Below are positions 1 through 27,855 of a stretch of DNA of 64,000 nucleotides, in pieces (positions within the stretch are counted from its first letter, which is position 1; every line of letters starts with the position of its first letter). Source of the DNA: Antedon mediterranea (lineage: Eukaryota; Animalia; Echinodermata); NCBI RefSeq assembly GCF_964355755.1, contig NC_092672.1, positions 23,759,237 through 23,823,236 of the forward strand, read 5' to 3'. The notes under the pieces were generated by a model. The model was given only the letters and a program-made list of their open reading frames with translations. It was not told where the DNA came from and searched no databases. The translations under genes and the position numbers were made by a program.

Positions 1-335
1 AAAAGTGGGTAAAGAGGGACGCTACTGACTACAGCCTGACAGACTTAGCATATTCAACCAAAAACCAACAACTAGTTACTATGGGTTCCGTGATTGAACT
101 TACTATGGACTGTGTGGGGAAGCTACTTAATGAAACAAAAGATACACGGCGCTTCGACCCAATGTTCCGACAGGAAATACAACAATGACAATTGGCTGAA
201 ACAAATTCAGTAAATGCCAAATTTAATCCTTTGAATGTATATAACTCTCAAATATTTTGTCATCTTTACCTCATTCTACAACGCTACAGCCTGACAGACT
301 TAGCATATTCAACCAAAAACCAACAACTAGTTACT

Positions 336-1064
336 ATGGGTTCCGTGATTGAAATAATTGATCTTACTATGGACTCTGATGTCGAAGAAGATGTTATATA
401 TATAAGCAGTGATTCAGAATTTGAAGACGAAGACATACTAGCTATGACTGGTGCCTATTTTACAGCAAAGGAGGAGGAAGAGATGAGGGAAGAGATGGGG
501 GATATGACGTGTTTAATGGCGATTCAACCCCCACCTCCAATGAACGTTGATTTCAATAATGTATCTAATACTGAAGAAGACGAACATTATAGATCGAGAA
601 TAATTTCTGAAGAGGAGAGGATTGTATACGACGACACGTCATCGGTAGTTGACTACCACCTATTTCTGGCAAGAAAAGCCGATGTAGAAGATGAGGTAGA
701 AGATGGGGTGTTTGCGGAAGAGTACCTGAACCCTGTGCTGGAGGCGGAGATTAAGAAAGAAACTACCGAACTTGAGTACAAAGAGATAATGAGAACAATT
801 GAGAAGGTTTTCATAGAAGAATTTATATTCATTCTGAAGGACATGGTTGAACGTTATAACTTTCACGGCTCAAGATATGAACAACTCCTAACATTTTTTC
901 GACCAATTCTGGCATTGAAACTTGTGGACAATAGCGCTACCCATTTTGAATGGGCGCTAAACTACTTTCATTTACGTTGTATAAATGTTGATGCGTTTGC
1001 TAAAGCCATAAAGTTGATTACAAATGATTCAGAACTTTTTAATAAGATTCTTTACCAATTGTAA
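336..1064 (+). CDS. Intronless 242-aa acidic accessory protein with N-terminal SIM-like motifs (VIEII, IIDLT, VIYIS+acidic) and a helical C-terminal domain; left-arm copy
   Basis: Open from ATG 336 to TAA 1064 (the ORF track extends to a non-ATG start at 192). IIDLT followed by acidic/Ser residues matches the canonical SUMO-interacting motif. No family recognised. Confidence 0.7.
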   Translation: MGSVIEIIDLTMDSDVEEDVIYISSDSEFEDEDILAMTGAYFTAKEEEEMREEMGDMTCLMAIQPPPPMNVDFNNVSNTEEDEHYRSRIISEEERIVYDDTSSVVDYHLFLARKADVEDEVEDGVFAEEYLNPVLEAEIKKETTELEYKEIMRTIEKVFIEEFIFILKDMVERYNFHGSRYEQLLTFFRPILALKLVDNSATHFEWALNYFHLRCINVDAFAKAIKLITNDSELFNKILYQL

Positions 1065-1318
1065 TTTGTACAAATTTAAAATAATATCTTAACACTTTTT
1101 TTAATTAATGTTACATATTTTTATATTTCTTATTTCTTTTCGGTAAATTTATTATTATTATGGTTGTAAATTATATTGAAATAGAATATGTGTTAAAATA
1201 AAGGTTGTGTTTTTTCTTTTAAAAGCAACAACAACGAAAATGAATTTGATCTTTGCGTGTTATTTAAGTATTTTATTTATTTTTTTAATTTTCATTTGGG
1301 TGAATGAGGGTAATGAGT

Positions 1319-1562
1319 ATGGATGAGTACTTAAGAAAAGTATATTATTACGATCCTAAGCATCCTGATAGTTTTGGTGGTGTGGACCGACTTTATCAAA
1401 ATGTAAAAATACGATTTAAATATTACCAAGAGACAAGTTCAAGACTGACTGAGCAAGCAAGATACATATACATTACACAAATCCATTCAACGTAAATTCA
1501 AACGAAACTGGGTACTTGTAAGTGTTATTGATGAACAATGGGGAATGGATTTGGAAAAATAA
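1319..1562 (+). pseudogene. Polinton retroviral-like integrase N-terminal fragment, copy A (frameshift + stop); mirrored at 12576-12819 (-)
   Basis: MDEYLRKVYYYDPKHPDSFGGVDRLY...ITKRQVQD*LSKQDTYTLHKSIQRKFKRNWVLVSVIDEQWGMDL matches the YYDP..P.SFGG / WL..QDTYTLHK / IDEQW..DL pattern of Maverick integrases. It breaks off after the first catalytic Asp. Confidence 0.88.
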
Positions 1563-1589
1563 CGTGTATAAAATTTGATTCAGACAAAC

Positions 1590-1730
1590 TGTTTGACTTT
1601 AAATTTCCAAAAATCAAAGGAAGTCAATTTTGAAATAGTTGGTAGCATGGTACAAGGAATCGGACTGGAAAAAATAACAACAACTAATCCTAACAAAATA
1701 ACCCGTAAACCAAAATCTCACTCTCTACCA
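1590..1730 (+). pseudogene. Protein-primed DNA polymerase B C-terminal fragment (also ~2288-2428 +, mirrored ~11710-11850 and ~12408-12548 -)
   Basis: LTLNFQKSKEVNFEIVGSMV...ITTTNPNKITRKPK resembles the TLN...INF..L..MV...NP.KI.R segment near the end of Polinton pPolB. Confidence 0.65.
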
Positions 1731-2020
1731 TTAAAAATGGGTAGCGCTATTGTCCACAAGTTAAAATTGAAGTAGAACCCTGTAACTTCTTTCAAATAAT
1801 CTCGAAGATCTTTCAGGACCGGTGGCCATGGCAAGGCTGGTACTATATTGCCTGAATATTATGTTAAACCCGTATCACCATAAGAAACCTGTCAAGTTGA
1901 AACATACTATTAAAAATATGATAAAAGCAACAACAACGAAAATGAATTTGATCTTTGCGTGTTATTTAAGTATTTTATTTATTTTTTTAATTTTCATTTG
2001 GGTGAATGAGGGTAATGAGT

Positions 2021-2260
2021 ATGGATGAGTACTTAAGAAAAGTATATTACGATCCTAAGCATCCTGATAGTTTTGGTGGTGTGGACCGACTTTATCAAAA
2101 GGTAAAATACGATTTAAATATTACCAAGAGACAAGTTCAAGACTGACTGAGCAAGCAAGATACATATACATTACACAAATCCATTCAACGTAAATTCAAA
2201 CGAAACTGGGTACTTGTAAGTGTTATTGATGAACAATGGGGAATGGATTTGGAAAAATAA
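2021..2260 (+). pseudogene. Polinton integrase N-terminal fragment, copy B (single frame, one TGA); mirrored at 11878-12117 (-)
   Basis: MDEYLRKVYYDPKHPDSFGGVDRLYQKVKYDLNITKRQVQD*LSKQDTYTLHKSIQRKFKRNWVLVSVIDEQWGMDLEK*. Confidence 0.88.
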
Positions 2261-3241
2261 TGTGTATAAAATTTGATTCAGACAAACTGTTTGACTTTAA
2301 ATTTCCAAAAATCAAAGGAAGTCAATTTTGAAATAGTTGGTAGCATGGTACAAGGAATCGGACTGGAAAAAATAACAACAACTAATCCTAACAAAATAAC
2401 CCGTAAACCAAAATCTCACTCTCTACCATTCAAAAACAACATTTTTGATGTAGCGATTTTTTCAAGCGGTATTGTCATGAACGTATTGAAAAGAAAATAG
2501 TTTTATTGTCAATGATTTGTCAAGTGTTTTATTTTAATTTCAATTACTGTTGTATTGTATTTAGTTTTACCCGTTTATGTTGGTATGATCAATATTTGCT
2601 CAAACTCCATTTTATCGTTATGTTTGTAGTATTTTAGAGATTCCCGATCATCGTAATAATGATATAACTAGAATTCGTAACCGTGTGTTAGATTCCACGC
2701 GTATTATATACATATTGTCTTACTTTAATTCCTTCTCTCGTTATTCACCCGATGTAGTTTGATCAAACAATTGTACCTGGGCCTGAAAGGTTAGTTGTTA
2801 TGGTACAAGGAATCGGCCCGGAAAATAATTTGTTTTCTTTTCTGTTAAATTATTATTATGTTTGTGAATTGTGTATTGCAATAGATTTGTTTAATGAAAT
2901 TAAATTAATTAGGCCTATGTTTTGACTTAATTTACTGTCAGTGTAAATTTGTAAAAGTAGTTTTCCTACTTTAATTCACGGTAAATTTATTTATCGACTT
3001 AATTTAATTTGTTTTCTTTTCTGTTGTTGTTAAATGTAATTGCAAACACACATAATAAATGATTGTGATTATAAATATTCTGTTTACTTCTTGTAATTTT
3101 AAACAGTACAATAGATCTGTAATGTAAAGCTATATTTTATATATAATAAGTAATATTACAAAAATAAACATACAAAATGTATAAAGCATAGATTAATTAA
3201 ATTTAAATACAATTTCTTTATTTCAAAATGAATTTCATTTT

Positions 3242-3688
3242 CTACGTGTTTTCAATTTTAAATCTTTTAAGAAAGACACAATACGTACTGCTAAAAAAAT
3301 AAAACGCACACAAAAGAAAACAAATTTGAGACGCACGATATGTAACGACGGTTTCAATAAAAAGGCATATTATAAATGTATTTTTACCAAATTTATAAAG
3401 TAAAGGGTTATTATTGAGAAATATATCACATTGTTTCGCAACACATGTACATACAACGAGTCCTGTCACAAATCTGCCGACATTTATTTTTTTATCGCTC
3501 ATCTATTGTTCTAATACATAATACAGCGCTTCCGAAGAAATATCTTTACACAATTCTAACACATTAAAATTGTTTTTCAACTCTTTACAAGCACGAATAG
3601 TACTCTGGAGGATGGGTGAATCCAAAACAATTAACCCCGTCAATTTATATTCAATGTATGCTAAAACTACTTCCTCTAAATCAACCAT
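3242..3688 (-). pseudogene. Bcl-2-like gene, left-arm copy interrupted by TAG at 3503-3505
   Basis: Same sequence as 9565-10011 except ATG>TAG after YYVLEQ, plus E>K and I>T substitutions. Confidence 0.8.
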
Positions 3689-4239
3689 AACGCTCGACAA
3701 AACAAATGATAATGGATGTAATTACCAAGAAAGTTACAACTTAAAACATTTATTTTTGTTTTTAAAAAGAAGTTGTAACATAGAAACTAATTTTGTCAGG
3801 AAATGTGTTTTTATAATTATTTACTTAATTGTACATACTTAAATAACCTTTATTTTCAAATCCTAAATATCCGGAAGAAAATGCCTTATGTCTTTGGATT
3901 ATGTCGCCAAAGATCAAGCAAGACATACTTATTATATCACTTCATTATAGTCTTCTTTTTATTTTTGTCTTTGTTATAAAATACCCCGTATTAATTATAT
4001 GTCGGAAGACACCTTTAACATATATTGTTATATACCCCGAAACACAATACCTATTGTTTCATACTTCCTAGTAATTTGTTTTTCAGTAATTTGTACATCT
4101 GACTAATACTTACAATTTTGCCTATATTTTGCCTGTAAACGCTATTTAACTATTCATTCTTATCTATTTTTATTTACCTGTCATTATGTTAAATAAAACA
4201 TATTCTAAATTAAATTTATATCATGTTAGATATATTTTC

Positions 4240-5012
4240 AAGAACATTTGTTACATAAAAATAAATTTGTAAAGAAATTTGTTACATAAGATAAATTTGT
4301 TAAGAAGTTTGTTTCATAAAAATATTTGTGTAGATAAATTTGTTACATGAAAATAAATTTTTTCAAAATATTTGTTACATAAAAATAAATTTGTAAAGAA
4401 ATTCGTTACATAAATTTATTTTTTACAAGAAGTTTGTAACAGAAAATTATTTTGCTAAGAATTAGTTGCATCAATTGATTTTATCAACCGTATGTAACAT
4501 AAAGAATTATTTTGTTGAAAAAAATATTTTGTCATTCAGTCCATTTGTTCAATAGGCCTAGTTCGTTTAAGTTTTTAAGAATTATTTGTGTAATATTCTT
4601 GTATATAAGAGAATTTATTTTTAACCTTTGTAATTATTTTGTAAATATCATTTATGCAATATTTTTGTGTGTAAATATTTGAATTTATTTATACTTTTTG
4701 TATGGAAATAATTATACTAATATTAAATATCATTATTTGTTTATAAATTTATTTGTGATTATAGATTTATTCTTTATAAGTATGTCGATTAATTTCAGAA
4801 TCAAAAACTTGTTACATAAGAAAAAAAAAAAATGGTCATGAAATTCGTTAAATAAAAAATAATTTATCAAGAATCTTTTTACATAAATTTTATTTTATCA
4901 TTAAATTTGTTACATAAAAATAATTTGTCAAGAATCTTTTTGCATAAAATTTATTTTGTCATTAAGTTTGTTACATAAAAAAAAAAAATTGTTTCATGAA
5001 TCTTGTTACATT
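4240..5012. repeat. AT-rich degenerate ~30-bp repeat array with core TTGTTACATAA; mirrored at ~5827-6600
   Basis: Repeated AAATTTGTTACATAAAAATAAATTTGT-like units in two clusters (~4240-4510 and ~4805-5012). Confidence 0.85.
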
Positions 5013-5069
5013 TTTTAAATTTTTGTTTTCAACTACTTATATGAAAATTCAAGTTAAGAACGCAGTATA

Positions 5070-5250
5070 ATGACAATGACTGGGCGTTTAGTAACACCTT
5101 TCACCGCGGTGATTAGCGGACAGACTTCCTCCGGTAACTCGGTATTTGTTAACAATCTTTTAGAAAATAATTACTTTAAAAAAATAAAACAAGTCGTTTG
5201 ATGATATGACAAAGTGTTATGGCGAATATCAAACTTAGTTTGAGAAGTAA
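5070..5250 (+). pseudogene. Polinton packaging ATPase N-terminal fragment with degenerate Walker A; mirrored at ~5589-5769 (-)
   Basis: MTMTGRLVTPFTAVISGQTSSGNSVFVNNLLEN...VV**Y and then CYGEYQ in a shifted frame. Compare the typical HPFT..I.GPTGSGKT.FV..LL...IVWCYGEWQ. The catalytic Lys reads Asn. Confidence 0.8.
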
Positions 5251-5267
5251 ATACTGTTTGTGTTTAC

Positions 5268-5447
5268 ATGCGTGTCATAGTAGAGTCCGCAGAGACCTAC
5301 AGATTTAAATTTAGAAATTCAAACAGAGTTAAAGATATGTCCATCAGGGAATGGCTGAATGAGCTCTCCCATTATTTAAAATGTTGGATGAAATGTGCTA
5401 ATGTAAAAGAAGATGATGCTGCAGGCATTTTATCAAGTTATAAATAA
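5268..5447 (+). CDS. 59-aa ORF of unknown function running from the left arm through the palindrome spacer
   Basis: MRVIVESAETYRFKFRNSNRVKDMSIREWLNELSHYLKCWMKCANVKEDDAAGILSSYK*; may be the 3' remnant of a longer gene. Confidence 0.35.
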   Translation: MRVIVESAETYRFKFRNSNRVKDMSIREWLNELSHYLKCWMKCANVKEDDAAGILSSYK

Positions 5448-6732
5448 TGAATTTTTATTTTAAATAATGGGAGAGCTCATTCAGCCATTCCCTGATGGAC
5501 ATATCTTTAACTCTGTTTGAATTTCTAAATTTAAATCTGTAGGTCTCTGCGGACTCTACTATGACACGCATGTAAACACAAACAGTATTTACTTCTCAAA
5601 CTAAGTTTGATATTCGCCATAACACTTTGTCATATCATCAAACGACTTGTTTTATTTTTTTAAAGTAATTATTTTCTAAAAGATTGTTAACAAATACCGA
5701 GTTACCGGAGGAAGTCTGTCCGCTAATCACCGCGGTGAAAGGTGTTACTAAACGCCCAGTCATTGTCATTATACTGCGTTCTTAACTTGAATTTTCATAT
5801 AAGTAGTTGAAAACAAAAATTTAAAAAATGTAACAAGATTCATGAAACAATTTTTTTTTTTTATGTATCAAACTTAATGACAAAATAAATTTTATGCAAA
5901 AAGATTCTTGACAAATTATTTTTATGTAACAAATTTAATGATAAAATAAAATTTATGTAAAAAGATTCTTGATAAATTATTTTTTATTTAACGAATTTCA
6001 TGACCATTTTTTTTTTTTCTTATGTAACAAGTTTTTGATTCTGAAATTAATCGACATACTTATAAAGAATAAATCTATAATCACAAATAAATTTATAAAC
6101 AAATAATGATATTTAATATTAGTATAATTATTTCCATACAAAAAGTATAAATAAATTCAAATATTTACACACAAAAATATTGCATAAATGATATTTACAA
6201 AATAATTACAAAGGTTAAAAATAAATTCTCTTATATACAAGAATATTACACAAATAATTCTTAAAAACTTAAACGAACTAGGCCTATTGAACAAATGGAC
6301 TGAATGACAAAATATTTTTTTCAACAAAATAATTCTTTATGTTACATACGGTTGATAAAATCAATTGATGCAACTAATTCTTAGCAAAATAATTTTCTGT
6401 TACAAACTTCTTGTAAAAAATAAATTTATGTAACGAATTTCTTTACAAATTTATTTTTATGTAACAAATATTTTGAAAAAATTTATTTTCATGTAACAAA
6501 TTTATCTACACAAATATTTTTATGAAACAAACTTCTTAACAAATTTATCTTATGTAACAAATTTCTTTACAAATTTATTTTTATGTAACAAATGTTCTTG
6601 AAAATATATCTAACATGATATAAATTTAATTTAGAATATGTTTTATTTAACATAATGACAGGTAAATAAAAATAGATAAGAATGAATAGTTAAATAGCGT
6701 TTACAGGCAAAATATAGGCAAAATTGTAAGTA

Positions 6733-9146
6733 CTAGATGGCACGCTCGCTTCGCTCGCGTACCATCTAGGGGTGCTCACAGATGGTTCTCGAATACAGTA
6801 GAATCCACGGACGGGGACTTTTTTGGGACACTAAACAAAAACGGAAGTGTCCCCCTAATTGGGGTATTCAGAAATAGAGACAACAAAACCAATACTGGAT
6901 TCCATAAAGGACAATTAATTTATGTGGATTAAAGAAATTAGGGAGAAATGGAAATGTATTTACGGGAATTGGGCGGCGGCACGTGGTGGTGGTGATGGAA
7001 CCGCAGTAATAAAGTTGATTGTATTTATATATTATAAGAACCAAACTAAATAAATAGACCTAGACATTCTGCGAAATGGAAATCGGAAATGCAAGCTCCT
7101 ATTCAGTGAAAAATTAAACTGTAGTCTACCTAAATATTTAGGGCAAATCATCGGTTGTGGTGTTGAAATTCCTGTAAACATTTGTGTGAACCAAACTGGG
7201 TCGAATTTCTGTCATGAGTACTGATTTGTTGGCCTGTGATTTATGACGCCTAAGGGATCTATCTAGACTTATTTTTTAGAATAATGTACGTACCTGTCAG
7301 ATACAATTGTCTTGTGTCGTATAATAAATAAGTACTGTAATAGTTACTGAAGTTACTATTACAATCTCGTCAATGAAAACACGAAAATGTATATGCGCTT
7401 ACTTATGAAAACGTATACAGTATTATACTCAGTTATTGAAACAGTAGGTTTAAAAAAGTTTCGTTTGTCTGTAAAATGATGTAATCAAGCTGTTTACATG
7501 AGTCTTAATTTATAAGCACATAAACTTACATAGAAAGTAGGGTATCATAAATTTGGCCTTAGCACTCGGGGGAGTGGCTAAGATGAAGTCCGTGGGACTA
7601 CTAAATATAAATTGTAATGAACCTCGAGGGACATAAATAGGAATATTTCATGTTTCATTATCAATGTATAATAAATGGAAACTGTTTACCGATTCAAATA
7701 ATAGAAATTGGTTTTTAACATTTTCCGAACCTATTGCAAGTTTATTCTCAAAGGGCCCATATATTTACCTACCGTATGTGTTAAACCAAGGGCTCATAAA
7801 TTTACCTACAGTACTTGTGTTAAACCAAACTCTGGCAGACTGAGAGATTGGGATGTTCCATTCATCGCAAATCAATACATTTGTATACGGTAATCGTATA
7901 TTAAATCTATCAAAATAGTATTTTTTAAAGAAAATCGGCCTGTCTTCAACATTATGATGGTGTACTCTAGCAATCTATCAAAATAGTATTTTTTAAAGAA
8001 AATCGGCCTGTCTTCAACCTTATGATGGTGTACTCTAGCTGTTCAACCGGTTTTCAGCTATTAAAAACAATTATCGTAGGAGGAGATAGGAAAATGCAAA
8101 GCCTCCTCGCTATGTAACATTAGGGTTGAGGGATGGGAAAGCGGATAGGTACAAAGAGGAACAATTTTTAAATATATTCTTTATCCACTGAGTAACGAAA
8201 TATTTTGTTCATGTTTTATAGGCCTATAAATAATATACCTCTAAATACAGTAGGCCTAAAACATTTGCGATTTAATACTTTGTTAAAACTGTCACTGTCA
8301 TAATCGATTGAAATATTAAAGTACATGTCACGATACACCACTACGACGTTTATATTTTTGGTAATTAAAAATTAATACAAACGTTGAGAAGGAACTGTCA
8401 GTATAAAGTTTATTTGTATATCTAACAGTAGAGCCTATCCACAGTCTCAGTAATAAAGTTTATTTGTATATATTTTTATATTACATCTAACAGTACGAAC
8501 ATTCACAGTAAGAAATGTTCGATTCAAATGAAAAATAGTTAATAGGTATTTACAGTATTGTCAAAGTATTGCAAGTTTATTCTCAAAGGGCCCATATATT
8601 TACCTACCGTATGTGTTAAACCAAGGGCTCATAAATTTACCTACAGTACTTTTGTTAAACCAAACTCTGGCAGACTGAGAGATTGGGATGTTCCATTCAT
8701 CGCAAATCAATACATTTGTATAATCGTATATTAAATCTATCAAAATAGTATTTTTTAAAGAAAATCGGCCTGTCTTCAACATTATGATGGTGTACTCTAG
8801 CTGTTCAACCGGTTTTCAGCTATTAAAAACAATTATCGTAGGAGGAGATAGAAAAATGCGAAGCCTCCTCGCATTTTTTTGGCGGGTATTTTTCAAGATG
8901 GACATCCATTAGACGGTGTATACCACGATCGGAAAACACCCCTATTTGGGGCAAATCGTTGAACCTAAATTCGTTTTAATCGTCAATAACTAATTATCTA
9001 ACTCAATTTAATTAGTAAACAGGGTTACATCAGGCGGTTAAAATCAGTACCGAAAGTACGAACCAACTTTACATACCATCGAGTGAAAATTCTAGAAGTA
9101 AGGCGCGATTTACCGAATTTTGCCCTTACGTAAATTTATATATAGA
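6733..9146 (-). mobile_element. Non-autonomous Helitron, 2414 bp
   Basis: Minus strand starts TCTATATATA and ends CTAG. A GC-rich hairpin at 6733-6769 includes GCGAGCGAAGCGAGC. It is inserted between A and T with no TSD, and the empty site is visible in the left arm (CTGACTAA|TACTTAC, ~4106). Internal direct repeat ~7732-8110 vs ~8567-8871. Confidence 0.93.
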
Positions 9147-9564
9147 TTAGTCAGATGTACAAATTACTGAAAAACAAATTACTAGGAAGTATGAAACAAT
9201 AGGTATTGTGTTTCGGGGTATATAACAATATATGTTAAAGGTGTCTTCCGACATATAATTAATACGGGGTATTTTATAACAAAGACAAAAATAAAAAGAA
9301 GACTATAATGAAGTGATATAATAAGTATGTCTTGCTTGATCTTTGGCGACATAATCCAAAGACATAAGGCATTTTCTTCCGGATATTTAGGATTTGAAAA
9401 TAAAGGTTATTTAAGTATGTACAATTAAGTAAATAATTATAAAAACACATTTCCTGACAAAATTAGTTTCTATGTTACAACTTCTTTTTAAAAACAAAAA
9501 TAAATGTTTTAAGTTGTAACTTTCTTGGTAATTACATCCATTATCATTTGTTTTGTCGAGCGTT

Positions 9565-10011
9565 ATGGTTGATTTAGAGGAAGTAGTTTTAGCATACATT
9601 GAATATAAATTGACGGGGTTAATTGTTTTGGATTCACCCATCCTCCAGAGTACTATTCGTGCTTGTAAAGAGTTGGAAAACAATTTTAATGTGTTAGAAT
9701 TGTGTAAAGATATTTCTTCGGAAGCGCTGTATTATGTATTAGAACAAATGATGAGCGATAAAAAAATAAATGTCGGCAGATTTGTGATAGGACTCGTTGT
9801 ATGTACATGTGTTGCGAAACAATGTGATATATTTCTCAATAATAACCCTTTACTTTATAAATTTGGTAAAAATACATTTATAATATGCCTTTTTATTGAA
9901 ACCGTCGTTACATATCGTGCGTCTCAAATTTGTTTTCTTTTGTGTGCGTTTTATTTTTTTAGCAGTACGTATTGTGTCTTTCTTAAAAGATTTAAAATTG
10001 AAAACACGTAG
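9565..10011 (+). CDS. Intronless viral-type Bcl-2 family protein, 148 aa (open right-arm copy)
   Basis: BH4-like LEEVVLAYIEYKL (cf. Bcl-2 NREIVMKYIHYKL), BH3-like IRACKELE, BH1-like VLEQMMSDKKINVGRFV (cf. ELFRDGVNWGRIV), and a hydrophobic C-terminal stretch followed by KRFK. No clear BH2. Confidence 0.75.
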   Translation: MVDLEEVVLAYIEYKLTGLIVLDSPILQSTIRACKELENNFNVLELCKDISSEALYYVLEQMMSDKKINVGRFVIGLVVCTCVAKQCDIFLNNNPLLYKFGKNTFIICLFIETVVTYRASQICFLLCAFYFFSSTYCVFLKRFKIENT

Positions 10012-10613
10012 AAAATGAAATTCATTTTGAAATAAAGAAATTGTATTCAAATTTAATTAATCTATGCTTTATACATTTTGTATGTTTATTTTTGTAATAT
10101 TACTTATTATATATAAAATATAGCTTTACATTACAGATCTATTGTACTGTTTAAAATTAAAAGAAGTAAACAGAATATTTATAATCACAATCATTTATTA
10201 TGTGTGTTTGCAATTACATTTAACAACAACAGAAAAGAAAACAAATTAAATTAAGTCGATAAATAAATTTACCGTGAATTAAAGTAGGAAAACTACTTTT
10301 ACAAATTTACACTGACAGTAAATTAAGTCAAAACATAGGCCTAATTAATTTAATTTCATTAAACAAATCTATTGCAATACACAATTCACAAACATAATAA
10401 TAATTTAACAGAAAAGAAAACAAATTATTTTCCGGGCCGATTCCTTGTACCATAACAACTAACCTTTCAGGCCCAGGTACAATTGTTTGATCAAACTACA
10501 TCGGGTGAATAACGAGAGAAGGAATTAAAGTAAGACAATATGTATATAATACGCGTGGAATCTAACACACGGTTACGAATTCTAGTTATATCATTATTAC
10601 GATGATCGGGAAT

Positions 10614-11492
10614 ATTTTGTCTCCAAATAAATTTCCTTACAAATTTATTTAGTATAGTTATCCTAAATATAAAATGTAGTCAGTACACTATTGAATTTAT
10701 TGCAACTTTAATTGTTACCATGGTTACTCCTAGTTTTGACCTGGAGTACCACACTGTATTATCATTAAGGCACTTGTTTGGATTTGGACATTCCAATGCA
10801 TTGACTTAATTTGTACATTGTACAGTATAAAGTATTAGTAATACAGTAGCATTCACTGAGAGAAGTCCACAAGCTTTTATATGCTTTTTGTTTACAAGTT
10901 TCATTTCTTTTTATATCTTTGACGTGCCTCTATTTGAGAATCACAGTGTGTAAGTACATGTTAATTTATAATTGTTATTTTAACTTTTAATTAGGCCATA
11001 TATAGGTCCATATATACTATTTAATCAATCAAGTTACTACTTTATATAGTACTGGCTATATATGTACAGTATCTATTTTAATAATTACAGTCTACAATCT
11101 AGGACGATGATTTATTGTTAATTCATTCCTAGTCTTAATGCATATAAGGCATAATTTTACCATTGATGCCTAAACCTAAATTTGTTGAAATGTTATAGAA
11201 ATTAAAGATATTAATTAATTTAGGTTAGTATAGCAGTTATATATGATTAGCATTTACGTTACCTTTTTTGCTTAAACAGCTAAATACAATGTTTGTACGC
11301 TGTATTGCTATTTTTAATGTAGTCTAGATAATGTTTTTCTTTGTAATCCTCCACAGTTTTACCAATATAATATACTACGATACGACGCATAATAAACGTT
11401 AGTAACGAAACTCTAACTACTATATGTACATCTAGTGTCTTATTTGGTTATCTGGCTGTCTAGAAGACGCGACCGTTATCGAGGGCAGCACA
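10614..11492. other. 879-bp unclassified insertion flanked by the 6-bp direct repeat GGGAAT
   Basis: GGGAAT at 10608-10613 and 11493-11498; single copy at the left-arm empty site (~2640-2645). No TIR, polyA tail or ORF seen. Confidence 0.85.
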
Positions 11493-13073
11493 GGGAATCT
11501 CTAAAATACTACAAACATAACGATAAAATGGAGTTTGAGCAAATATTGATCATACCAACATAAACGGGTAAAACTAAATACAATACAACAGTAATTGAAA
11601 TTAAAATAAAACACTTGACAAATCATTGACAATAAAACTATTTTCTTTTCAATACGTTCATGACAATACCGCTTGAAAAAATCGCTACATCAAAAATGTT
11701 GTTTTTGAATGGTAGAGAGTGAGATTTTGGTTTACGGGTTATTTTGTTAGGATTAGTTGTTGTTATTTTTTCCAGTCCGATTCCTTGTACCATGCTACCA
11801 ACTATTTCAAAATTGACTTCCTTTGATTTTTGGAAATTTAAAGTCAAACAGTTTGTCTGAATCAAATTTTATACACATTATTTTTCCAAATCCATTCCCC
11901 ATTGTTCATCAATAACACTTACAAGTACCCAGTTTCGTTTGAATTTACGTTGAATGGATTTGTGTAATGTATATGTATCTTGCTTGCTCAGTCAGTCTTG
12001 AACTTGTCTCTTGGTAATATTTAAATCGTATTTTACCTTTTGATAAAGTCGGTCCACACCACCAAAACTATCAGGATGCTTAGGATCGTAATATACTTTT
12101 CTTAAGTACTCATCCATACTCATTACCCTCATTCACCCAAATGAAAATTAAAAAAATAAATAAAATACTTAAATAACACGCAAAGATCAAATTCATTTTC
12201 GTTGTTGTTGCTTTTATCATATTTTTAATAGTATGTTTCAACTTGACAGGTTTCTTATGGTGATACGGGTTTAACATAATATTCAGGCAATATAGTACCA
12301 GCCTTGCCATGGCCACCGGTCCTGAAAGATCTTCGAGATTATTTGAAAGAAGTTACAGGGTTCTACTTCAATTTTAACTTGTGGACAATAGCGCTACCCA
12401 TTTTTAATGGTAGAGAGTGAGATTTTGGTTTACGGGTTATTTTGTTAGGATTAGTTGTTGTTATTTTTTCCAGTCCGATTCCTTGTACCATGCTACCAAC
12501 TATTTCAAAATTGACTTCCTTTGATTTTTGGAAATTTAAAGTCAAACAGTTTGTCTGAATCAAATTTTATACACGTTATTTTTCCAAATCCATTCCCCAT
12601 TGTTCATCAATAACACTTACAAGTACCCAGTTTCGTTTGAATTTACGTTGAATGGATTTGTGTAATGTATATGTATCTTGCTTGCTCAGTCAGTCTTGAA
12701 CTTGTCTCTTGGTAATATTTAAATCGTATTTTTACATTTTGATAAAGTCGGTCCACACCACCAAAACTATCAGGATGCTTAGGATCGTAATAATATACTT
12801 TTCTTAAGTACTCATCCATACTCATTACCCTCATTCACCCAAATGAAAATTAAAAAAATAAATAAAATACTTAAATAACACGCAAAGATCAAATTCATTT
12901 TCGTTGTTGTTGCTTTTAAAAGAAAAAACACAACCTTTATTTTAACACATATTCTATTTCAATATAATTTACAACCATAATAATAATAAATTTACCGAAA
13001 AGAAATAAGAAATATAAAAATATGTAACATTAATTAAAAAAAGTGTTAAGATATTATTTTAAATTTGTACAAA

Positions 13074-13802
13074 TTACAATTGGTAAAGAATCTTATTAAA
13101 AAGTTCTGAATCATTTGTAATCAACTTTATGGCTTTAGCAAACGCATCAACATTTATACAACGTAAATGAAAGTAGTTTAGCGCCCATTCAAAATGGGTA
13201 GCGCTATTGTCCACAAGTTTCAATGCCAGAATTGGTCGAAAAAATGTTAGGAGTTGTTCATATCTTGAGCCGTGAAAGTTATAACGTTCAACCATGTCCT
13301 TCAGAATGAATATAAATTCTTCTATGAAAACCTTCTCAATTGTTCTCATTATCTCTTTGTACTCAAGTTCGGTAGTTTCTTTCTTAATCTCCGCCTCCAG
13401 CACAGGGTTCAGGTACTCTTCCGCAAACACCCCATCTTCTACCTCATCTTCTACATCGGCTTTTCTTGCCAGAAATAGGTGGTAGTCAACTACCGATGAC
13501 GTGTCGTCGTATACAATCCTCTCCTCTTCAGAAATTATTCTCGATCTATAATGTTCGTCTTCTTCAGTATTAGATACATTATTGAAATCAACGTTCATTG
13601 GAGGTGGGGGTTGAATCGCCATTAAACACGTCATATCCCCCATCTCTTCCCTCATCTCTTCCTCCTCCTTTGCTGTAAAATAGGCACCAGTCATAGCTAG
13701 TATGTCTTCGTCTTCAAATTCTGAATCACTGCTTATATATATAACATCTTCTTCGACATCAGAGTCCATAGTAAGATCAATTATTTCAATCACGGAACCC
13801 AT
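13074..13802 (-). CDS. Identical right-arm copy of the 242-aa SIM-containing acidic protein
   Basis: Translation identical to 336-1064 in the ORF track. Confidence 0.7.
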   Translation of the reverse strand: MGSVIEIIDLTMDSDVEEDVIYISSDSEFEDEDILAMTGAYFTAKEEEEMREEMGDMTCLMAIQPPPPMNVDFNNVSNTEEDEHYRSRIISEEERIVYDDTSSVVDYHLFLARKADVEDEVEDGVFAEEYLNPVLEAEIKKETTELEYKEIMRTIEKVFIEEFIFILKDMVERYNFHGSRYEQLLTFFRPILALKLVDNSATHFEWALNYFHLRCINVDAFAKAIKLITNDSELFNKILYQL

Positions 13803-14985
13803 AGTAACTAGTTGTTGGTTTTTGGTTGAATATGCTAAGTCTGTCAGGCTGTAGCGTTGTAGAATGAGGTAAAGATGACAAAATATTTGAGAGTTATATA
13901 CATTCAAAGGATTAAATTTGGCATTTACTGAATTTGTTTCAGCCAATTGTCATTGTTGTATTTCCTGTCGGAACATTGGGTCGAAGCGCCGTGTATCTTT
14001 TGTTTCATTAAGTAGCTTCCCCACACAGTCCATAGTAAGTTCAATCACGGAACCCATAGTAACTAGTTGTTGGTTTTTGGTTGAATATGCTAAGTCTGTC
14101 AGGCTGTAGTCAGTAGCGTCCCTCTTTACCCACTTTTTGTTTTATTTTAAAAGGAAACAAAGAAATCTTTTCGTAAACGTAACCAATTTAAATGAAAATA
14201 AAACTAAACATTGGAAAACAAAAATCATGAAAAATAGTGAAACTAACATCATGACGTTACACATTAAACTTTAGTATGTCAAACACCCCGTGTCACTGCT
14301 TTCGATTTATCCCCTTTGTTAACAAATCCGGAAGATGGTTAATTACCTGTCGGTATAGTTCAATCAAGACATACTTATTATTTAACTTCATTCATTCTTA
14401 TCTTTTTGTTTTAGTCATTGTTATAATATCCGGATCAAATAACTTATGTCTTTGGATTATGTCGGCATACATCAAGCAAAAACCTCAATTAACTAGTTTT
14501 AATTAACCAGGTGCATTTTTATTGACTATGACTAATTCAAATCTTACAAAAACTATATTGTCTCACTTCCTTACCCTATGTTAACTATTGTATTATAATC
14601 CGAAACATAACACCTATTGACTTCAACCATTGTAAACCATTTTGTTCTCATCACAAGCAACTAAATTACCATATCATTTTTATTTAATATTTATTAATTT
14701 TATATTATAATGTATAACAAATCTATATAACAATTCTAGTGAAATGATATACTCTATTGTCTTATACTATCCCCATTGTTAACCATTGTTATAACCACGA
14801 CTGACTATCCGTGTAACGATCATCTATATCACTGCCTGGAACAACAACAGTATCCTCACATTAGAAACACCTGGCGGATATTACGTAATCAGGAAATACC
14901 TCAAGGTTAACTTTGGGCTGAAGTACCTTATTTACTACTGATGAAGACAGAACATAAAAAGCAATGGACGGGAACAATAGAGAAA

Positions 14986-15094
14986 ATGGTGTTAGTATAG
15001 TGTTAGTATGGTGTTAGTTTGATGTTAGTATGGCATTAGTATGGTGTTAGTATGGTGTTAGTATAGTGTTTAGTATGGTGTTACTATGGTGTTT
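14986..15094. repeat. ~11-bp tandem repeat (TAGTATGGTGT)n
   Basis: About 9 degenerate copies visible. Confidence 0.85.
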
Positions 15095-16558: not shown

Positions 16559-18883
16559 TTATGAGAAATGAGTTTAAACGAAGCAGATGCACTATTCCAT
16601 AATTGTAATGCTTTGAGAAACTATTTATGACCTTCTAACCCCCTTTTATGTGAATATACTGTAAAACTGGCTTTCAGTTTTAAGTATATTACCTTATTCT
16701 TTTCAATTACACTGACATGTGTGAACGAGATAAGTTTGCACTGCTGATGGTGTCATGAAGAAACTCACAAAATAAACTTGGATCTGAATGTCTGTTTAAC
16801 TTGCATTGCTATAAACAAGATAAACTTGCAATTAGTTCATAGAAAGTAAATGACATAATAACATGATTGTGATCTTAGATGGACAGTCTAAATCACTGGG
16901 CATACTATGCCTGTATGGTAAAAACCTCTGTTTCTCAAAATGTCAAATTCAAAATACAAAAGAGTTATTATTTTACAACGTACTGTACTACGATTGAGAA
17001 AGGCAAATTCTCAATACATATGATCTTTTTTTACAGCAGTTTATCTTTCAATAAAAAGACAAACTACAGAATACAGGTCTTTTCCAACCATAATTGGCGA
17101 AAAACTATGATAAATAATTTTTTGTATTTTGCTGTGGAATAGCAACACTTACTTGATTCATAAGTGCAAATATACTGATTTTGCCTTCAATAACATCAAG
17201 ACATGTTTTATTGTCAGTAAAGTCTTCAAATTTCCATGGAATTCCTTCAGATTAACAGTCATCCTAAAATAATACAAACATGGCTGTTTAATCAGCAGTA
17301 TAATTATGTTTATAAAGGTTCATCATTATCACTGTTAGAGAAAAAAAGTGAATGATAATTCTCATAACTTTAATTATTATTGTTATCTTAATTATTTTAT
17401 ATTATATTATAATTATACTAGTATTTTGATATTTTTTTTACAAGATTCGTTTGATATAAACTAAAAGAAGTGCCATATTATTTTTCTTCATTTTTTTTTT
17501 AAATAAAAGAACTGTTGTTATTATCACTTTAATAAAACACCGTAGCACCAACTGTATATTAGCATACTCTATATATAGAAAATAAGTTTGTTGGAATACC
17601 TGTTCTGCTTTGAGGAAGTTGTGCACAAAATGTTGCTGAAGCTTCTCATTTGCATAATTTATGCATAATTGCTCCAAACTGTTAAATGAAAAACTTTCAA
17701 ATCCGTAGACATCCAGTAGACCAATGTAAGACTGCCAACTCCTGGCCATGGTACAGCCATTGATGAATCCAACGAGCCAATCAAAAACTCTGAAACGTTA
17801 AACCATAATTTAGTCACAGTCTTCAAAGCTAGTTTTTTTTTTTGGTAAAACCAAAGTGGGGTTGAAAACGTTTGCATGTAAACATTTTCTCCTGTTACAT
17901 ACTAACTACATGACAAAGAAAGAAATTAGGCAGAAAGAAGTCGGGCCATGACAGAAAGAGAGATTAGGCAGAAAGAAGTCAGGCCATGACAGAAAGAGAG
18001 ATTAGGCAAGAAAAAAAATTAAATTAAATTGACTAAGTATTAGAGTTTGCATGTATGTATGTTTATTTAATTTTTGTGAATGTTTAAAGGTGTATGTACA
18101 ATTTGCTGTGGGCAATCCACCTCAGTGCAGACCAGCATGCATATGGGGAAGCAAATAAAAGTTATTGGATTTGTACAACATCTTCTGTGGGTTTGTTTTG
18201 AATGTATAACAGGTCAGTAAAAGGCAAATACTGCACAACAAGAATCATTTTCAAAAGAGTAAGTAGGTTTCTTTCACTACAAACAAATATAGCTTTAATG
18301 TTTGTAAAATACCTGGCATAGAGTAACTTTGCAAGACAATCTCTCCTTGTATGACATTCATCTTTTATGCAAGGTTTCATAAAGACACTCTTTCTACGCT
18401 TGTGAGATGCAGTGATTTGTCGGAATGCAAGACATCTAGTTAAGGCACCAACATCAAGACCAAGTAACTGTGCAGCAGCATTAACAGAGGTGTCAACTCC
18501 TGATGAAGCAACATAAATAGTACAACAATATGATATATTGAATAATTAGTAAATTAGAAAATCTTTCTTTGGCTGAAATATTTTATCAACATTTTTTGAA
18601 GATGGAGAAAAATATTAATAAGATTGTTTAAGATTTTAAAATGACATAATTATTAACGATATTTTTTTAGATATTTTGTGACCAACCTACAATAATATTA
18701 AGGTATTCCTTATGTCCGTTTTTAGTTATTTCTCATATATTATATTATGGTAGAAATAAAAACAAATTAAAAAATAGTAAAAAGATGTATTAACTGTTGA
18801 TAGAATATTATGAATCATAAATAAACGCCAATTTCCTTTAGATTAAAAATTCTAATAAAATAAAAAAGAATGAACAAACAGTA

Positions 18884-19358
18884 TTTAAGCTAAACTATAA
18901 ATACTGTATGCAATCTTAAAGGTCGCAACTACTTTAAGCTAAACTATAAATACTGTATGCAAACTTAAAGGTCGCAACTACTTTAAGCTAAACTATAAAT
19001 ACTGTATGCAATCTTACAGGTTGCAACTACTTTAAGCTAAACTATAAATACTGTATGCAATCTTAAAGGTCACAACTACTTTAAGCTAAACTATAAATAC
19101 TGTATGCAAACTTAAAGGTCGCAACTACTTTAAGCTAAACTATAAATACTGTATGCAAACTTAAGGTTGCAACTACTTTAAGCTAAACTATAAATACTGT
19201 ATGCAATCTTAAAGGTCGCAACTACTTTAAGCTAAACTATAAATACTGTATGCAATCTTACAGGTTGCAACTACTTTAAGCTAAACTATAAATACTGTAT
19301 GCAATCTTAAAGGTTGCAACTACTTTAAGCTAAACTATAAATACTGTATGCAATCTTT
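18884..19358. repeat. ~49-bp minisatellite, about 10 copies
   Basis: Unit ACTACTTTAAGCTAAACTATAAATACTGTATGCAATCTTAAAGGTCGCA. Confidence 0.95.
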
Positions 19359-19937
19359 TTATTGGTATAATACAGAAAATAATTAAACAGCATAACCTTT
19401 TATATCATTTACCTTGTTTTTCAGAATCAATTTCACATGGTCCAGTGACATCATCACTAATAAACTCTACATTTCCAAGATGAAGTATACCACTTAGAAT
19501 CTACAAATAAACACATTTTCAAATTCAATTCAATAATTCAAAAAATAGAATTATAACATTACTATTAGATTTATGTATAAAAAACATCAAAGTCTATTAT
19601 CACTTATTTATATACTACCATTGGGTTTTCATTACCATAAATTTGTAAAAGTTGTTTTGAATCAATATACTATCATGATTGTAAAAACTAGGTAAAAGTT
19701 CACTGATGTTTACTGTCCACATGTGCTGGATTAGTTTAACCAAGGCATCTAAACACATTGCTTTGGTTCAGTTAGTTCACTGATGTTTACTGTCCAAATG
19801 TGCTGGATTAGTTCAACCAAGGCATCTAAACACATTGTTTTGGTTCAGTTACTAATAATATCACCACTAAGTTTAACCATGTTTTACCAGTGAATTCACT
19901 CTTCTCTTGTAAAACAATGTTTGTTAAGTAACCAGTT

Positions 19938-20256
19938 CTAATTAAGTAAAAGTTTCTTACTTTAAATAATTCTTGTTGCTGTGACCTGCTAAGTCCAACA
20001 TTAGACATTGCTTACTAACTAATTAAGTAAAAGTTTCTTACTTTAAATAATTCTTGTTGCTGTGACCTGCTAAGTCCAACATTACACATTGCTTACTAAC
20101 TAATTAAGTAAAAGTTTCTTACTTTAAATAATTCTTGTTGCTGTGACTTGCTAAGTCCAACATTACACATTGCTTACTAACTAATTAAGTAAAAGTTTCT
20201 TACTTTAAATAATTCTTGTTGCTGTGACTTGCTAAGTCCAACATTACACATTGCTT
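19938..20256 (-). repeat. 81-bp tandem repeat (4 copies) made of a myosin exon 3' end plus splice donor
   Basis: Each unit reads ...GLS(K/R)SQQQELFK|gtaaga on the minus strand; period 81 (19961, 20042, 20123, 20204). Confidence 0.93.
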
Positions 20257-23249
20257 GCTTTGTAACTATAAAATCTTGTTTGTCCTTTTGATTACATGCA
20301 TCTTCTGAATGGTTTAGTGACACATACTGTAGTTTAAGTTGTCTGAACTCAATACATTTGGTAGTAACCAGTTCCTCATTTCCCTTTCATTTCCGCCAAA
20401 CAGCATCTATGATAATTTGAAAGAAGAAATGTTAATGATATTATTAAAAAGACTAATAATGAGAAAAATATAAACTAATAATATATTTCATGCTTTGATA
20501 ACATTAGTAGAGTGAGTGCTTTCTTGCGCTATATTACAAAATATTATAAAGTGACAATTTTGTTTCAAGATGTTTAATATCAGTACCAGAAAGATCCTTT
20601 TCATATCTGCCTACATTGATCTCCAGACTTATTACATGTTTTCATATTTACTCACGAACCTTGTGAAATCACGGGACAAGTATTGTCATTGTATAGTTGA
20701 TGGTGCTATCATTAAGTTTGTGAGAACAAAAAAGTCACGCTTCGATACTTTCAAACAGGTGTACGGTCAGTTAAATACTAGGACATACCCTTTGGTTGTA
20801 ATCAGGTTGTTAAAATTCTACTGATATTCACAGGGGCCTGTTTTTTTGTTTGTTCTGCGCTTTGTGTTTGCTATTAGCCTACTCACTTTAGAAACATGGC
20901 AACAGAAATAAATTGCAGGGTTTTTTCTAACCTGCAGAAAATATGCAAATGTATCACAGTTTCCAGCAGTTAAGTTAAACAGTTGGTTATCCGGTTTAAG
21001 GGTACACAAAAATGAAACATAACTAATACTAACTTGGTAAAAGATGTGAAAATTCCTGGCACCATCACATTGATAAAATAATGTATGAAACTTACCGACT
21101 GAATTGTAGCTGAATGTACTTTCCAAAGCGGCTACTATTGTGATTCCTGGTTGTGCTAGCATTGCCTAAGAAAATGAAATAATAGTTGTCTAACAGAGAT
21201 GGAGTTGTAGGGTACTGGGTGGCAAAAGATTAATATTACTGTATATATATATATACTGGTACAGGCCATCAAATATTGCCATCAATTGCAATTAATTCTA
21301 CTAGTCTTAATGATACCAAATCTGCCAAAAATTTAATTTGAGCATAAAATCTCACGAAATTCATATTTCGAACATACTGTAAGTTGGCCACTGCTCATCA
21401 ACAGTTTTAGCCTATATATTATATTAGGAGTTTAAAGGATTTTGGCACCATGACTGAAGGTTAAAGATATGCTAGAATTACAAAATGTAAAATCAGTACA
21501 CAAACTGCTTTAAATTAGCATTTTAAATTTCATTTTACATAAAGCGTTAATCAATTTTAGGTTAGGTGTAGCTTTATTTATTTATTTATTTTTAAATCAG
21601 TATGATACTTATTGACTTTTATATTTCAGTTTTCTCAGGGAAGAGTTAAATTACAATTTAATTTAACTCTTCCCTGGTTTTCTTGTAATTTTAATGGTAC
21701 ACTATCATTATGCTCATTTTTATTTGGTTCTCATCTCTTTATCGACTGTTCTTATTCTATTTTTTCTTTATCTGTTGATGATAATGATGATGAATATAGA
21801 AAATTTGATATATTGATATGATTTAAAAATGCTGATTTTGTATATTTAACAAAAATAAACGTCTAACTTCTAGCGATCTTTCTTAAGACCATAACAGTAC
21901 ATAGATGTTTTTACATTTGAGAATGACATGTGTATCTTACTGTACTTTATTAAAGATAAACATAATAATTACCAAATGCTTCAAGAATAGGATTTGAGTC
22001 TAATATTCTACGTTCAATGCAATCTGCTGGTGATGGTGTAAAACCACTATGAACAAAAAAGACAACAAGTTATCACAAATAAGTAACAAAACAGAGACAA
22101 ATCTATAATTATGATGAAATAAAAACTGTAATTTTACATACATGAGAGTGTTTAATGATATTAAATTAAATTTGTTTATTTGTATTATCCAGGGTTACAT
22201 ACTGTCACCATTGTCAGATTTTTTGTAAACATCTTGCATTCCATGTCTGTAATAAAACAATAATAAATAACAGAGAATAACAAACGTTTTTGTATTTTCA
22301 CAAAAAATATTGACAAACTGCCTTTGTGAAAATGGGTTGCCAACATTCCCTCTTTGCACGTCTGGCAAGCATTTTAGTGACATTCAATAAATGCTGATTT
22401 TGTAACAGTGTCCTTTGAAACAGTAAAAACAAATTATAGCACTCTCTATTACTTGTCCATGCTTTTAGCCTCTCTATTTTTATTCAAGTTTGGGCCTCTC
22501 CATTATTTCAAAATAAACAAGAAATGGTTTTAAAGGTAAAAAATTGACTCTGATTACATTGGTGAAAACAAACGTAAAACTGAAATTGTTGAATTACCTT
22601 TCCAGAACCACTTTCACCGCTGACAATTATTGACTGATTAATCTTGTCTAGTCTTCTAGTAAGATTACACAAAGCTGTTTCTGCAATTCCAAATACATGT
22701 GGTGGGTGTGCCTGAAAAAAAAAAAAATAAAGATGTATATTCCCCAAAAAAACATGAAAATGAGGATTAATAAAATCAAGCCATTTTGCTGTTTTAAAAA
22801 AGTTATTCATTTTAAAGAAATAAAAAACACAAATATAGTGTTTTAACTTTAAAAAAAGACAAAATTAATGGTTAAACTTAACCAAATGTTAAAAAATTAC
22901 AGTTTTTCAGGTAAATAATGTTTTTTTTTCCAATTTTTGGTCAAAGTAAATAACTACAGTATTACTATTAATGTGACATAAAATAGCATATTCAGCAAAA
23001 CAATTATCTTTTCAGAGGAGCTCTGCATATATCTCTAAGTTCTCACTTCTAAGTCAACTGAGGACATATTAATATTTTTGCCCAATATTGAAGATAAAGT
23101 GAAGTCAAGATTTTAATAGTGATGTCACCAACATATCAATTTTCCTAAAAATCAATAGTATACTAGCAAATCGTTGTTTACCTTTTGATCACTATGGTAA
23201 CGATGAATCATATGAACATCAAAATGTCCAGTTGCTTTGAAAGGATTTA

Positions 23250-23846
23250 AAGTAACGAGTGTGTTGCCAGTCTGAGTGTGGTATCTACCAGCTAAGTACC
23301 GCTCACGTAAACAGTTCAGCACTATGAACAGAAAAACTTTAGTTAAGTAACAAGTGTGTTGCCAGTCTGAGTGTGGTATCTACCAGCTAAGTACCGCTCA
23401 CGTAAACAGTTCAGCACTATGAACAGAAAACATTAGGTTAAGTAACAAGTGTGTTGCCAGTTTGAGTGTGGTATCTACCAGCTAAGTACGCTCACGTAAA
23501 CAGTTCAGCACTATGAACAGAAAACATTAGGTTAAGTAACAAGTGTGTTGCCAGTCTGAGTGTGGTATCTACCAGCTAAGTACGCTCACGTAGACAGTTC
23601 AGCACTATGAACAGAAAACATTAGGTTAAGTACAGTAACAAGTGTGTTGCCAGTTTTAGTGTGGTATCTACCAGCTAAGTACCGCTCATGTAAACAGTTC
23701 AGCACTATGAACAGAAAACATTAGGTTAAGTAACACGTGTGTTGCCAGTTTGAGTGTGGTATCTACCAGCTAAGTACCGCTCATGTAAACAGCTCAGCAC
23801 TATGAACAGAAAACATTAGGTTAAGTAACCAACGTGTGTTGCCAGT
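23250..23846 (-). repeat. ~95-bp tandem repeat (6-7 copies) made of a myosin splice acceptor plus exon 5' end
   Basis: Each unit reads ttttctgttcatag|TGCTGAACTGTTTAC... (VLNCLRERYLAGRYHTQTGNTLVT); only the last copy continues into LNPFK. Confidence 0.93.
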
Positions 23847-27775: not shown

Positions 27776-27855
27776 AATAATACCCTACCCAGGCCTACCT
27801 ACCTAGCCTAGCTAGGCCTAGAGGCTACTCTAGGGTCAGGCTATAGTAGTATATA

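Follow-up and report, generated by a model that had tools for sequence, protein, structure and literature searches.

A palindromic Polinton relic in the echinoderm Antedon mediterranea, probably a non-autonomous fold-back derivative

Polintons of animals (also Mavericks or adintoviruses) are described as elements of about 15 kb with AGTAGT-type ends, an ancestry that includes an integrase, a protein-primed polymerase (pPolB) and an A32-type ATPase, and a Bcl-2-like accessory gene (PMC8097293, PMC8502044, 10.1101/2023.08.22.554363). In the parts of these reports that we draw on, their terminal repeats measure 46-1,447 bp (PMC8097293) or 100-1,500 bp (10.1101/2023.08.22.554363). Here we describe an element at the start of a 64,000-nucleotide stretch of the Antedon mediterranea genome (NC_092672.1, positions 23,759,237 to 23,823,236, forward strand; hereafter the window). 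It resembles animal Polintons in the motif at its right end, gene ancestry, predicted size and likely Bcl-2-like accessory gene, but its two inverted arms are at least 5.4 kb long (6.2 kb predicted), only 74 bp of it is unique apart from two later insertion/deletion differences (indels), and none of its core genes is intact. With a predicted length of about 15.7 kb, it is probably a non-autonomous Polinton derivative of the fold-back type, which a helper would replicate and integrate as one unit.

The closest published case that we found is the gene-bearing repeats of about 2 kb in butterflies. As described in portions of that report, butterfly Polintons have genes duplicated inside their inverted repeats and include defective copies with retroelement DNA; those repeats flank a long unique core with hexon and adenain, whereas the element described here is essentially all repeat and bears accessory open reading frames (ORFs) only (10.1101/2025.02.07.637071). 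The snap-back genomes of adeno-associated virus (AAV), in the portion of the source concerned with them, are likewise self-complementary sub-genomes of a DNA virus, and the AAV form depends on the full genome; they derive from one end, are packaged and are not germ-line insertions, unlike the present arm, which apparently keeps relics of each end and has foreign DNA where it turns (PMC8235507). Snap-back genomes and centre repair are already known in other systems. Hairpin or palindromic derivatives of protein-primed linear plasmids, such as yeast pGKL, and the panhandle end repair of adenovirus use the same replication chemistry, in which one end is copied into two. The pGKL-type derivatives are episomal and have no integrase, and we know of none with a captured centre. 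New here are a variable inner junction, a partly mirrored captured piece and a probable internal remnant of a second end. No all-palindrome Polinton class was found in the literature searched, including the portions consulted of PMC6431247, PMC8504770 and PMC3014272; an earlier description is possible, Repbase and the founding paper being outside this scope.

Self-comparison of the window resolved the palindrome into three pairs of inverted blocks, with two further segments confined to the right arm:

1..2645, + strand: outer block of the left arm, cut by the window start; its mirror predicts 802 more bases
2640..4106, + strand: middle block of the left arm, aligned with 9147-10613
4235..5011, no strand: AT-rich tandem arrays of 31/61 bp, mirrored at 5857-6628
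5457..6732, - strand: inner block of the right arm, with one real mismatch against 4107-5382
6733..9146, - strand: non-coding Helitron of 2,414 bp, right arm only
9147..10613, - strand: middle block of the right arm, mirror of 2640-4106
10614..11492, no strand: 879-bp segment, right arm only, flanked by two copies of GGGAAT
11493..14137, - strand: outer block of the right arm, with mirrored core-gene scraps and a second copy of an acidic ORF (13802-13074)

The outer blocks (1-2645/11493-14137) were identical over all 2,645 positions. The middle blocks (2640-4107/9146-10613) differed at 6 of 1,468, all between left-arm positions 3093 and 3577, and the inner blocks (4103-5382/5457-6736) at 2 of 1,280; of these two, one falls on the Helitron's terminal base, which leaves 1 real difference. 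The arms thus show 7 true differences over about 5,380 aligned bases (99.87% identity) on either side of a 74-bp spacer (5383-5456), which bears out the near-identical inverted arms that had been noticed in an earlier reading of the DNA letters (the sequence-only reading). At least 14 kb of palindrome lie in the window, and mirror arithmetic predicts a full element of 15,741 bp. Self-complementarity spans nearly the whole element, as in a snap-back defective genome. No Rfam match was obtained in 1-20000.

Two later events broke the symmetry. Helitrons have a 5' TC, a 3' CTRR and a 3' hairpin, and insert between A and T without duplication. The insert at 6733-9146 shows every one of these hallmarks: it has a 5' TC, a 3' CTAG and a 3' hairpin of -13.0 kcal/mol, and separates an A from a T that stand side by side in the left arm. 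It also contains internal duplications (7690-8110 / 8520-8872; 282 bp at 92% and 139 bp at 98%) and tandem units of 37 and 68 bp. The 879-bp segment at 10614-11492 is either an insertion with a 6-bp duplication or the trace of a microhomology deletion in the left arm; inspection by eye gave no clear match to solo long terminal repeat (LTR) or terminal-repeat ends. The substitutions were unevenly distributed: the outer block is free of them (post hoc p 0.009), and 485 bp contain 5 of 6 events (post hoc p 0.002). This suggests conversion, either between the arms or from a sister copy.

An identical block of 2,645 bp is also what a collapsed or mirrored read would leave, and we weighed an artefact of assembly or library preparation: a read that is itself palindromic, a chimera made during amplification, or a head-to-head join of two paralogous copies or haplotypes. 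Against it stand the differences between the arms, namely the Helitron, whose ends and target are exact, the 879-bp indel and seven substitutions. A single mirrored read could not carry such arm-specific differences, so a simple read artefact is ruled out. Together with the suggestive junction contigs from another sample described below, these differences make an artefact of any kind very improbable.

Each arm carries pieces of Polinton core genes:

1220..1737, + strand: first copy of a 518-bp direct duplication with integrase and polymerase scraps, 98.6% identical to 1922-2435
1319..1553, + strand: frameshifted scrap of the integrase N-terminus (tblastn with P0001, E 2e-27; profile independent E value (iE) 1.4e-15)
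1581..1709, + strand: candidate scrap of the protein-primed polymerase C-terminus, weakly matching residues 854-895 in a pPolB of 970 aa (41% over 46 aa; E 7e-4 to 3e-3)
1922..2435, + strand: second copy of the duplication, with an integrase scrap at 2021-2251 (one stop) and a polymerase scrap at 2279-2407
3864..4319, + strand: diverged second copy of the sub-terminal region, matching 14320-14794
5031..5231, + strand: scrap of the packaging-ATPase N-terminus with Walker A (profile iE 1.7e-7; Pfam Adeno_IVa2 E 0.051)

The reference proteins came from metagenomes. P0001, an rve protein, was found with the integrase scrap as the sole match among four candidates; it yielded 63 metagenome loci, of which L008 and L020 were examined in detail, and no locus in viral contigs. 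Both are Polinton-type: L008 encodes pPolB, an A32-type ATPase and a chromo-integrase, and L020 an ATPase, an integrase and an adenain-like ORF. Their near-complete gene sets (L008, 3856-14662; L020, 704-9997) served as comparison references. Profiles were built from the ORFs of L004, L006, L008 and L020, and the controls (reversed sequence and host flank) gave nothing below iE 1e-3.

The integrase scrap at 2021-2251 was 79% identical to P0001 over 77 aa (E 5e-37; profile iE 6.6e-26), and an intact integrase is absent, these 77-aa N-terminal scraps carrying a stop or a frameshift. The polymerase scraps at 1581-1709 and 2279-2407 were weakly matched (41-44% over 43-46 aa, E 6e-4 to 3e-3; best reversed control 0.024), and only by pairwise and fragment-seeded searches, the profile from the whole L008 protein giving nothing below iE 1e-3. 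Intact pPolB is likewise absent: a weak scrap of about 45 aa occurs twice per arm, with no long polymerase ORF in the part of the element within the window. The ATPase is represented by its N-terminal scrap alone, and no capsid or protease scrap was found with these profiles at a cut-off of iE 1e-3. The element therefore lacks the polymerase, integrase and ATPase/protease/capsid genes of an autonomous Polinton. On sequence similarity, it contains DNA derived from Polinton core genes, in agreement with the Polinton origin that had been proposed. The description of the element as holding only scraps stood for the core genes, none of which is intact, but not for two non-core ORFs, a 242-aa acidic and a 148-aa Bcl-2-like one, which are open.

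The segment at 3864-4319 bears on where the arm came from. It aligns with 14320-14794 in blocks of 80-86% identity, with a local score of 149 against 75 +/- 9 (maximum 119) in 200 local shuffles. It stands to the Bcl-2-like gene as the true sub-terminal region stands to the acidic ORF, upstream in each case, and the two genes face each other. The segment is likely what remains of the other end of the parent; alternatively, it may be a shared promoter. Given this second sub-terminal segment and the pieces of three core genes per arm, each arm resembles an entire Polinton that deletions have compressed. The sequence-only reading had the palindrome built from one end, and the integrase, polymerase and ATPase pieces in each arm together with 3864-4319 speak against that.

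These data also bear on whether a discrete snap-back is needed at all. An ordinary Polinton might have been deleted internally while its terminal repeats grew inward by arm-to-arm copying, through panhandle repair or gene conversion. Identity across the outer 2,645 bp versus six differences in the middle block fits such homogenisation, and butterflies, in the portions of the report that describe them, combine gene-bearing terminal repeats of about 2 kb with polB-less Polintons carrying long interspersed element (LINE) or Gypsy cargo (10.1101/2025.02.07.637071). Yet each arm encloses the probable remnant of the parental second end, only 80-86% identical, which argues that today's right end was copied from the left arm and is not the original one, and the mirror reaches into captured foreign DNA (see below). 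We regard inward growth without a snap-back as quite improbable.

The two non-core ORFs were analysed separately:

336..1064, + strand: acidic ORF, 242 aa, open, reading inward from the predicted left end; second copy at 13802-13074
3242..3688, - strand: left copy of the Bcl-2-like gene, broken by an in-frame stop near 3503-3505
9565..10011, + strand: Bcl-2-like ORF, 148 aa, open (Pfam Bcl-2 E 0.009; Atlas 0.91 with 204 shared features)

The acidic ORF is open in both arms, and homology searches, including Pfam, gave no homolog. Among its variants listed, 4 of 6 were synonymous against an expected share of 0.20 (p 0.017). It may contain SUMO-interaction-like motifs. Atlas matches of 0.86-0.87 to DDE transposase clusters were rejected as lying below 0.9 with low recognition. 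Two small rearrangements involve this ORF. A 70-bp duplicate of its start lies upstream (29-98 / 284-353; mirror 14040-14109 / 13785-13854), opens another short frame and is present in both arms; and 35 bp of the ORF (919-953) recur inverted at 1728-1762, at the end of the first 518-bp duplicate, resembling a short templated insertion.

The ORF at 9565-10011 is likely a cell-death-control (Bcl-2-like) gene. Its Pfam score was 17 bits, below the cut-off of 31.4, and 9 of the 10 best matches behind its Atlas value of 0.91 fell in one family or clan. Foldseek placed Bax/Bcl-xL in 9 of 15 rows, all at E 2.6 or worse, for a single-sequence model with a predicted local distance difference test (pLDDT) value of 40. 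Other homology searches gave no match and a viral fold search was empty. Bcl2 homologs are known accessory genes of adintoviruses, according to the relevant part of PMC8502044.

Public runs were used to ask how the arm and its centre occur elsewhere. Sixteen of the 18 listed runs, from seven studies, hold part of 9146-16500, with no RNA run listed as holding it, and four were analysed, setting aside rows with a small share: X2 and X5 (organism code A), X7 (B) and X9 (C). The median summed arm-to-flank depth, which is not a copy number, was 46.9x in X7, 8.6x in X9, 2.4x in X5 and 2.0x in X2. These depths mark the arm as repeated DNA, at least for X7 and X9. The centre comprises the following features:

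5283..5286, + strand: inner end of the Polinton-derived arm (mirror 5553-5556), with loose ends at 5553 (X5, X7), 5554 (X2) and 5556 (X2)
5285..5429, + strand: captured repeat piece, 145 bp, the first 98 bp of which are mirrored at 5457-5554
5383..5456, no strand: spacer, 74 bp, consisting of 47 bp of captured repeat and 27 bp of filler (5430-5456)

In X5, a 2,086-nt contig at depth 321 spans precisely 5285-5429 and continues into other sequence on both sides. A repeat boundary was found behind 5554, the mirror of 5285, in all four runs, and behind 5429 in three of them. Together, this contig and the recurring boundaries indicate that 145 bp of the centre belong to a separate high-depth repeat. 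A weak Pfam SCAN match of 5285-5429 (E 0.038) makes it likely that this repeat is a Gypsy gag (SCAN-like). As 98 bp of the captured DNA are mirrored (5285-5382/5457-5554), the fold-back that made the present centre came after the capture.

At the inner end of the arm, within 4 bases of it, the runs hold four other continuations, one each in X5 and X7 and two in X2. The one in X5 is a single 379-nt contig (72 letters on the arm, about 300 off it, depth 123); the others have 25 letters (X7), 12 letters in two contigs (X2) and 118 letters (X2). Exact 57-nt contigs in X7 cover the arm-to-repeat and repeat-to-filler junctions at depths of 3,630 and 3,152, compared with 849 for a flank contig. They reach 26-30 letters to either side of the junction, short of the 31-letter bridging rule, and are suggestive only. 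No contig crossed the fold-back junction 5456|5457 in any of the four runs, contigs showing presence and not absence. The inner end has no Polinton end motif, and its pattern was not found in viral contigs. Three matches of 13-20 residues between the centre peptide and viral contigs were rejected.

Set against the sequence-only reading, these results have mixed consequences. A repeated arm, as it implied, agrees with the arm-to-flank depth of 2.0x-46.9x in all four runs, and its fold-back step with the mirroring of 98 bp of foreign DNA. Its expectation that other copies would share the 74-bp spacer was not supported, as the inner end enters four other sequences among the four runs, and the spacer is not the element's own, 47 bp of it coming from a separate repeat and 27 bp being filler rather than Polinton DNA.

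The same observations could be read as a one-off chromosomal event. A deleted Polinton from a repeated single-arm family would have lain beside a Gypsy fragment, and a break in the flank would, by folding back, have duplicated the arm, perhaps with host DNA, in place; the palindrome would never have been mobile as a unit, and the other sequences at the inner end would be other insertion flanks or the parent's interior. A turn in the flank would give mirrored DNA that is foreign, as the 98 bp are, and fold-back priming needs only inverted repeats of 5-9 bp in the account given in part of PMC7999016. On the other side, without a Polinton end motif at its inner end a single arm would have no second end to integrate with. 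In X5 the continuation is single and as deep as the arm itself (123), not a set of many shallow flanks, and short contigs in X7 suggest this captured centre at roughly fourfold the depth of the flank. The X7 contigs also suggest, below the bridging rule, that the arm-repeat-filler order exists in a second sample, contrary to an artefact. We therefore consider a one-off event at this locus unlikely, though less so than inward growth of the repeats.

The right end of the element and its host site were examined next to each other:

14138..14939, - strand: terminal 802 bp, with the AGTAGT end on this strand; its mirror lies outside the window
14940..14945, + strand: GATGAA, candidate target-site duplication, directly after ACTACT
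17441..23379, - strand: exons of a host myosin motor, covering Myosin_head profile positions 6-408 of 679

ACTACT occupies 14934-14939, with GATGAA next to it; by mirror symmetry, the opposite end is predicted 802 bases upstream of base 1. Over the six 200-bp bins that lead up to 14939, the observed/expected ratio of CpG lay at 0.54-1.41; over the three that follow, it lay at 0.22-0.26. Depth across the terminus bin fell to flank level in X7 (24,989 to 4,402 to 960) and X9 (36.2 to 6.55 to 3.86). The AGTAGT-type terminus that had been placed at 14939 is thus present as a motif, with a CpG drop and, in two of four runs, a depth drop. The commonest vertebrate Maverick end matches this motif, according to the part of PMC8097293 that treats it. 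Just inside the end, at 14380-14880, X7 and X9 showed many different deletions of 60-265 bp, and family members vary strongly there.

In the flank, 126 minus-strand stretches of at least 30 aa were present in 14940-30000, and 64 of them were submitted to the myosin search. Myosin_head was matched by 7 of these 64, in order, and by none of the 25 in 14940-17440. Among the 60 structure matches listed, only myosins I, II and V appeared among the myosins; the gene is shown to encode a myosin motor, possibly MYO19. The profile stops at position 408 of 679, so that the second half of the myosin is expected beyond the element, or has been lost. The one-off event discussed above draws some support from this, since the gene ends there within the window and the left end of the element is unseen. 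A very high-copy short repeat, likely a tRNA-derived short interspersed element (SINE), lies in a myosin intron at 16302-16477, with depth far above the flank in all four runs, and a second repeat lies in the flank at about 15520-15990.

Returning to the fold-back derivative that we favour, its history might be ordered as follows. The arm would have arisen by serial deletion of a whole Polinton, consistent with the mosaic of terminus, ORFs, scraps and probable second remnant that it now displays. During protein-primed strand displacement, a strand may then have folded back at the inner end (about 5286) and been copied back over itself, doubling the origin-bearing end. The centre would next have been a fragile point that broke and was healed with DNA at hand; the 145-bp repeat lies at the inner end here, and other sequence lies there in other samples. 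The second arm may have been rebuilt from the first more than once, as the mirrored 98 bp of the captured piece suggest. A helper's polymerase and integrase would have acted on the two AGTAGT ends, and the element would have landed in a myosin intron. The Helitron and the 879-bp indel came later, and the 74-bp spacer may let the palindrome persist.

Comparable behaviour is described for long palindromes in general, whose centre is fragile and is stabilised by spacers of 35-52 bp or more, in the passages of PMC8701086 that deal with them. In mouse line 78, as covered in parts of PMC8701086 and PMC7999016, the centre is likewise the fragile point, but stabilisation occurred mostly by deletion, whereas here different foreign pieces occur at one arm end and one of them is partly mirrored.

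Several points weigh against the favoured derivation. In the line-78 palindrome, 93% of 118 rearrangements were deletions and spacer inclusion was termed uncommon in the same part of the source (PMC8701086), which implies that capture is not the usual repair. The arm-to-flank depth was only about 2x in two of the four runs, and the four other continuations could be single-arm insertion flanks or the parent's interior rather than loops. The contigs are too short to show long-range symmetry, and no second whole palindromic copy was shown. Arm identity is not a clean clock, with two large indels against seven point differences that are clustered. At the terminus, depth did not fall past 14939 in X2 or X5, the bin that follows containing an 11-bp tandem repeat, and ACTACT is frequent by chance (0.48/kb on the + strand of the window). 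The predicted left terminus and the putative target-site duplication beside it lie outside the window, and we infer integration as a unit. A helper with the same ends was not found by an end-pattern search in viral contigs. Three viral contigs that matched the 17-nt end pattern were rejected as chance, having no blastn or tblastx similarity to the window.

A further-reaching proposal is that such elements are hairpin-type Polinton parasites. Their second arm would be repeatedly rebuilt, foreign DNA would be captured at a fixed turn-around point and partly mirrored, and they would spread as whole palindromes in several related animal species, keeping only host-directed genes (the Bcl-2-like gene and the acidic ORF). 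We put this forward tentatively, and in its full form we think it possible but doubtful.

The remainder of the window holds other features. At 33233-34563 there is a second, older inverted repeat, its short centre flanked by arms that are about 575 bp long and 90% identical; it is likely a MITE or a fold-back element. Exon-like ORFs on the + strand at 41966-55305 gave weak matches to COR-A (E 0.002) and to a death-effector domain (E 7e-5), and possibly represent one or two ROCO-type immune genes. Decayed frames at 43054-43855 resemble, by eye, a non-LTR reverse transcriptase. An apparently intact Gypsy-type retrotransposon lies at 59079-63690, with a 1,314-aa gag-pol frame (protease, reverse transcriptase, RNase H and integrase) between 225-bp direct repeats at 97.8% identity; blastn of its gag against the captured piece in the palindrome centre gave no match.

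Polinton replication has so far been inferred mainly from gene content, and all-palindrome derivatives are a prediction of strand displacement with fold-back. Because fold-back predicts an all-palindrome family, the model can be tested through matching ends, target-site duplications, clustered turn-around points and hairpin molecules. Annotation pipelines that demand core genes or short terminal repeats would overlook such elements. The partly mirrored captured centre places capture before fold-back and suggests a route by which host or retroelement DNA may be picked up. If these elements are indeed hairpin-type parasites, their centre would record successive fold-backs and would be direct evidence, from the genome, that Polinton replication passes through a single-stranded or hairpin intermediate.

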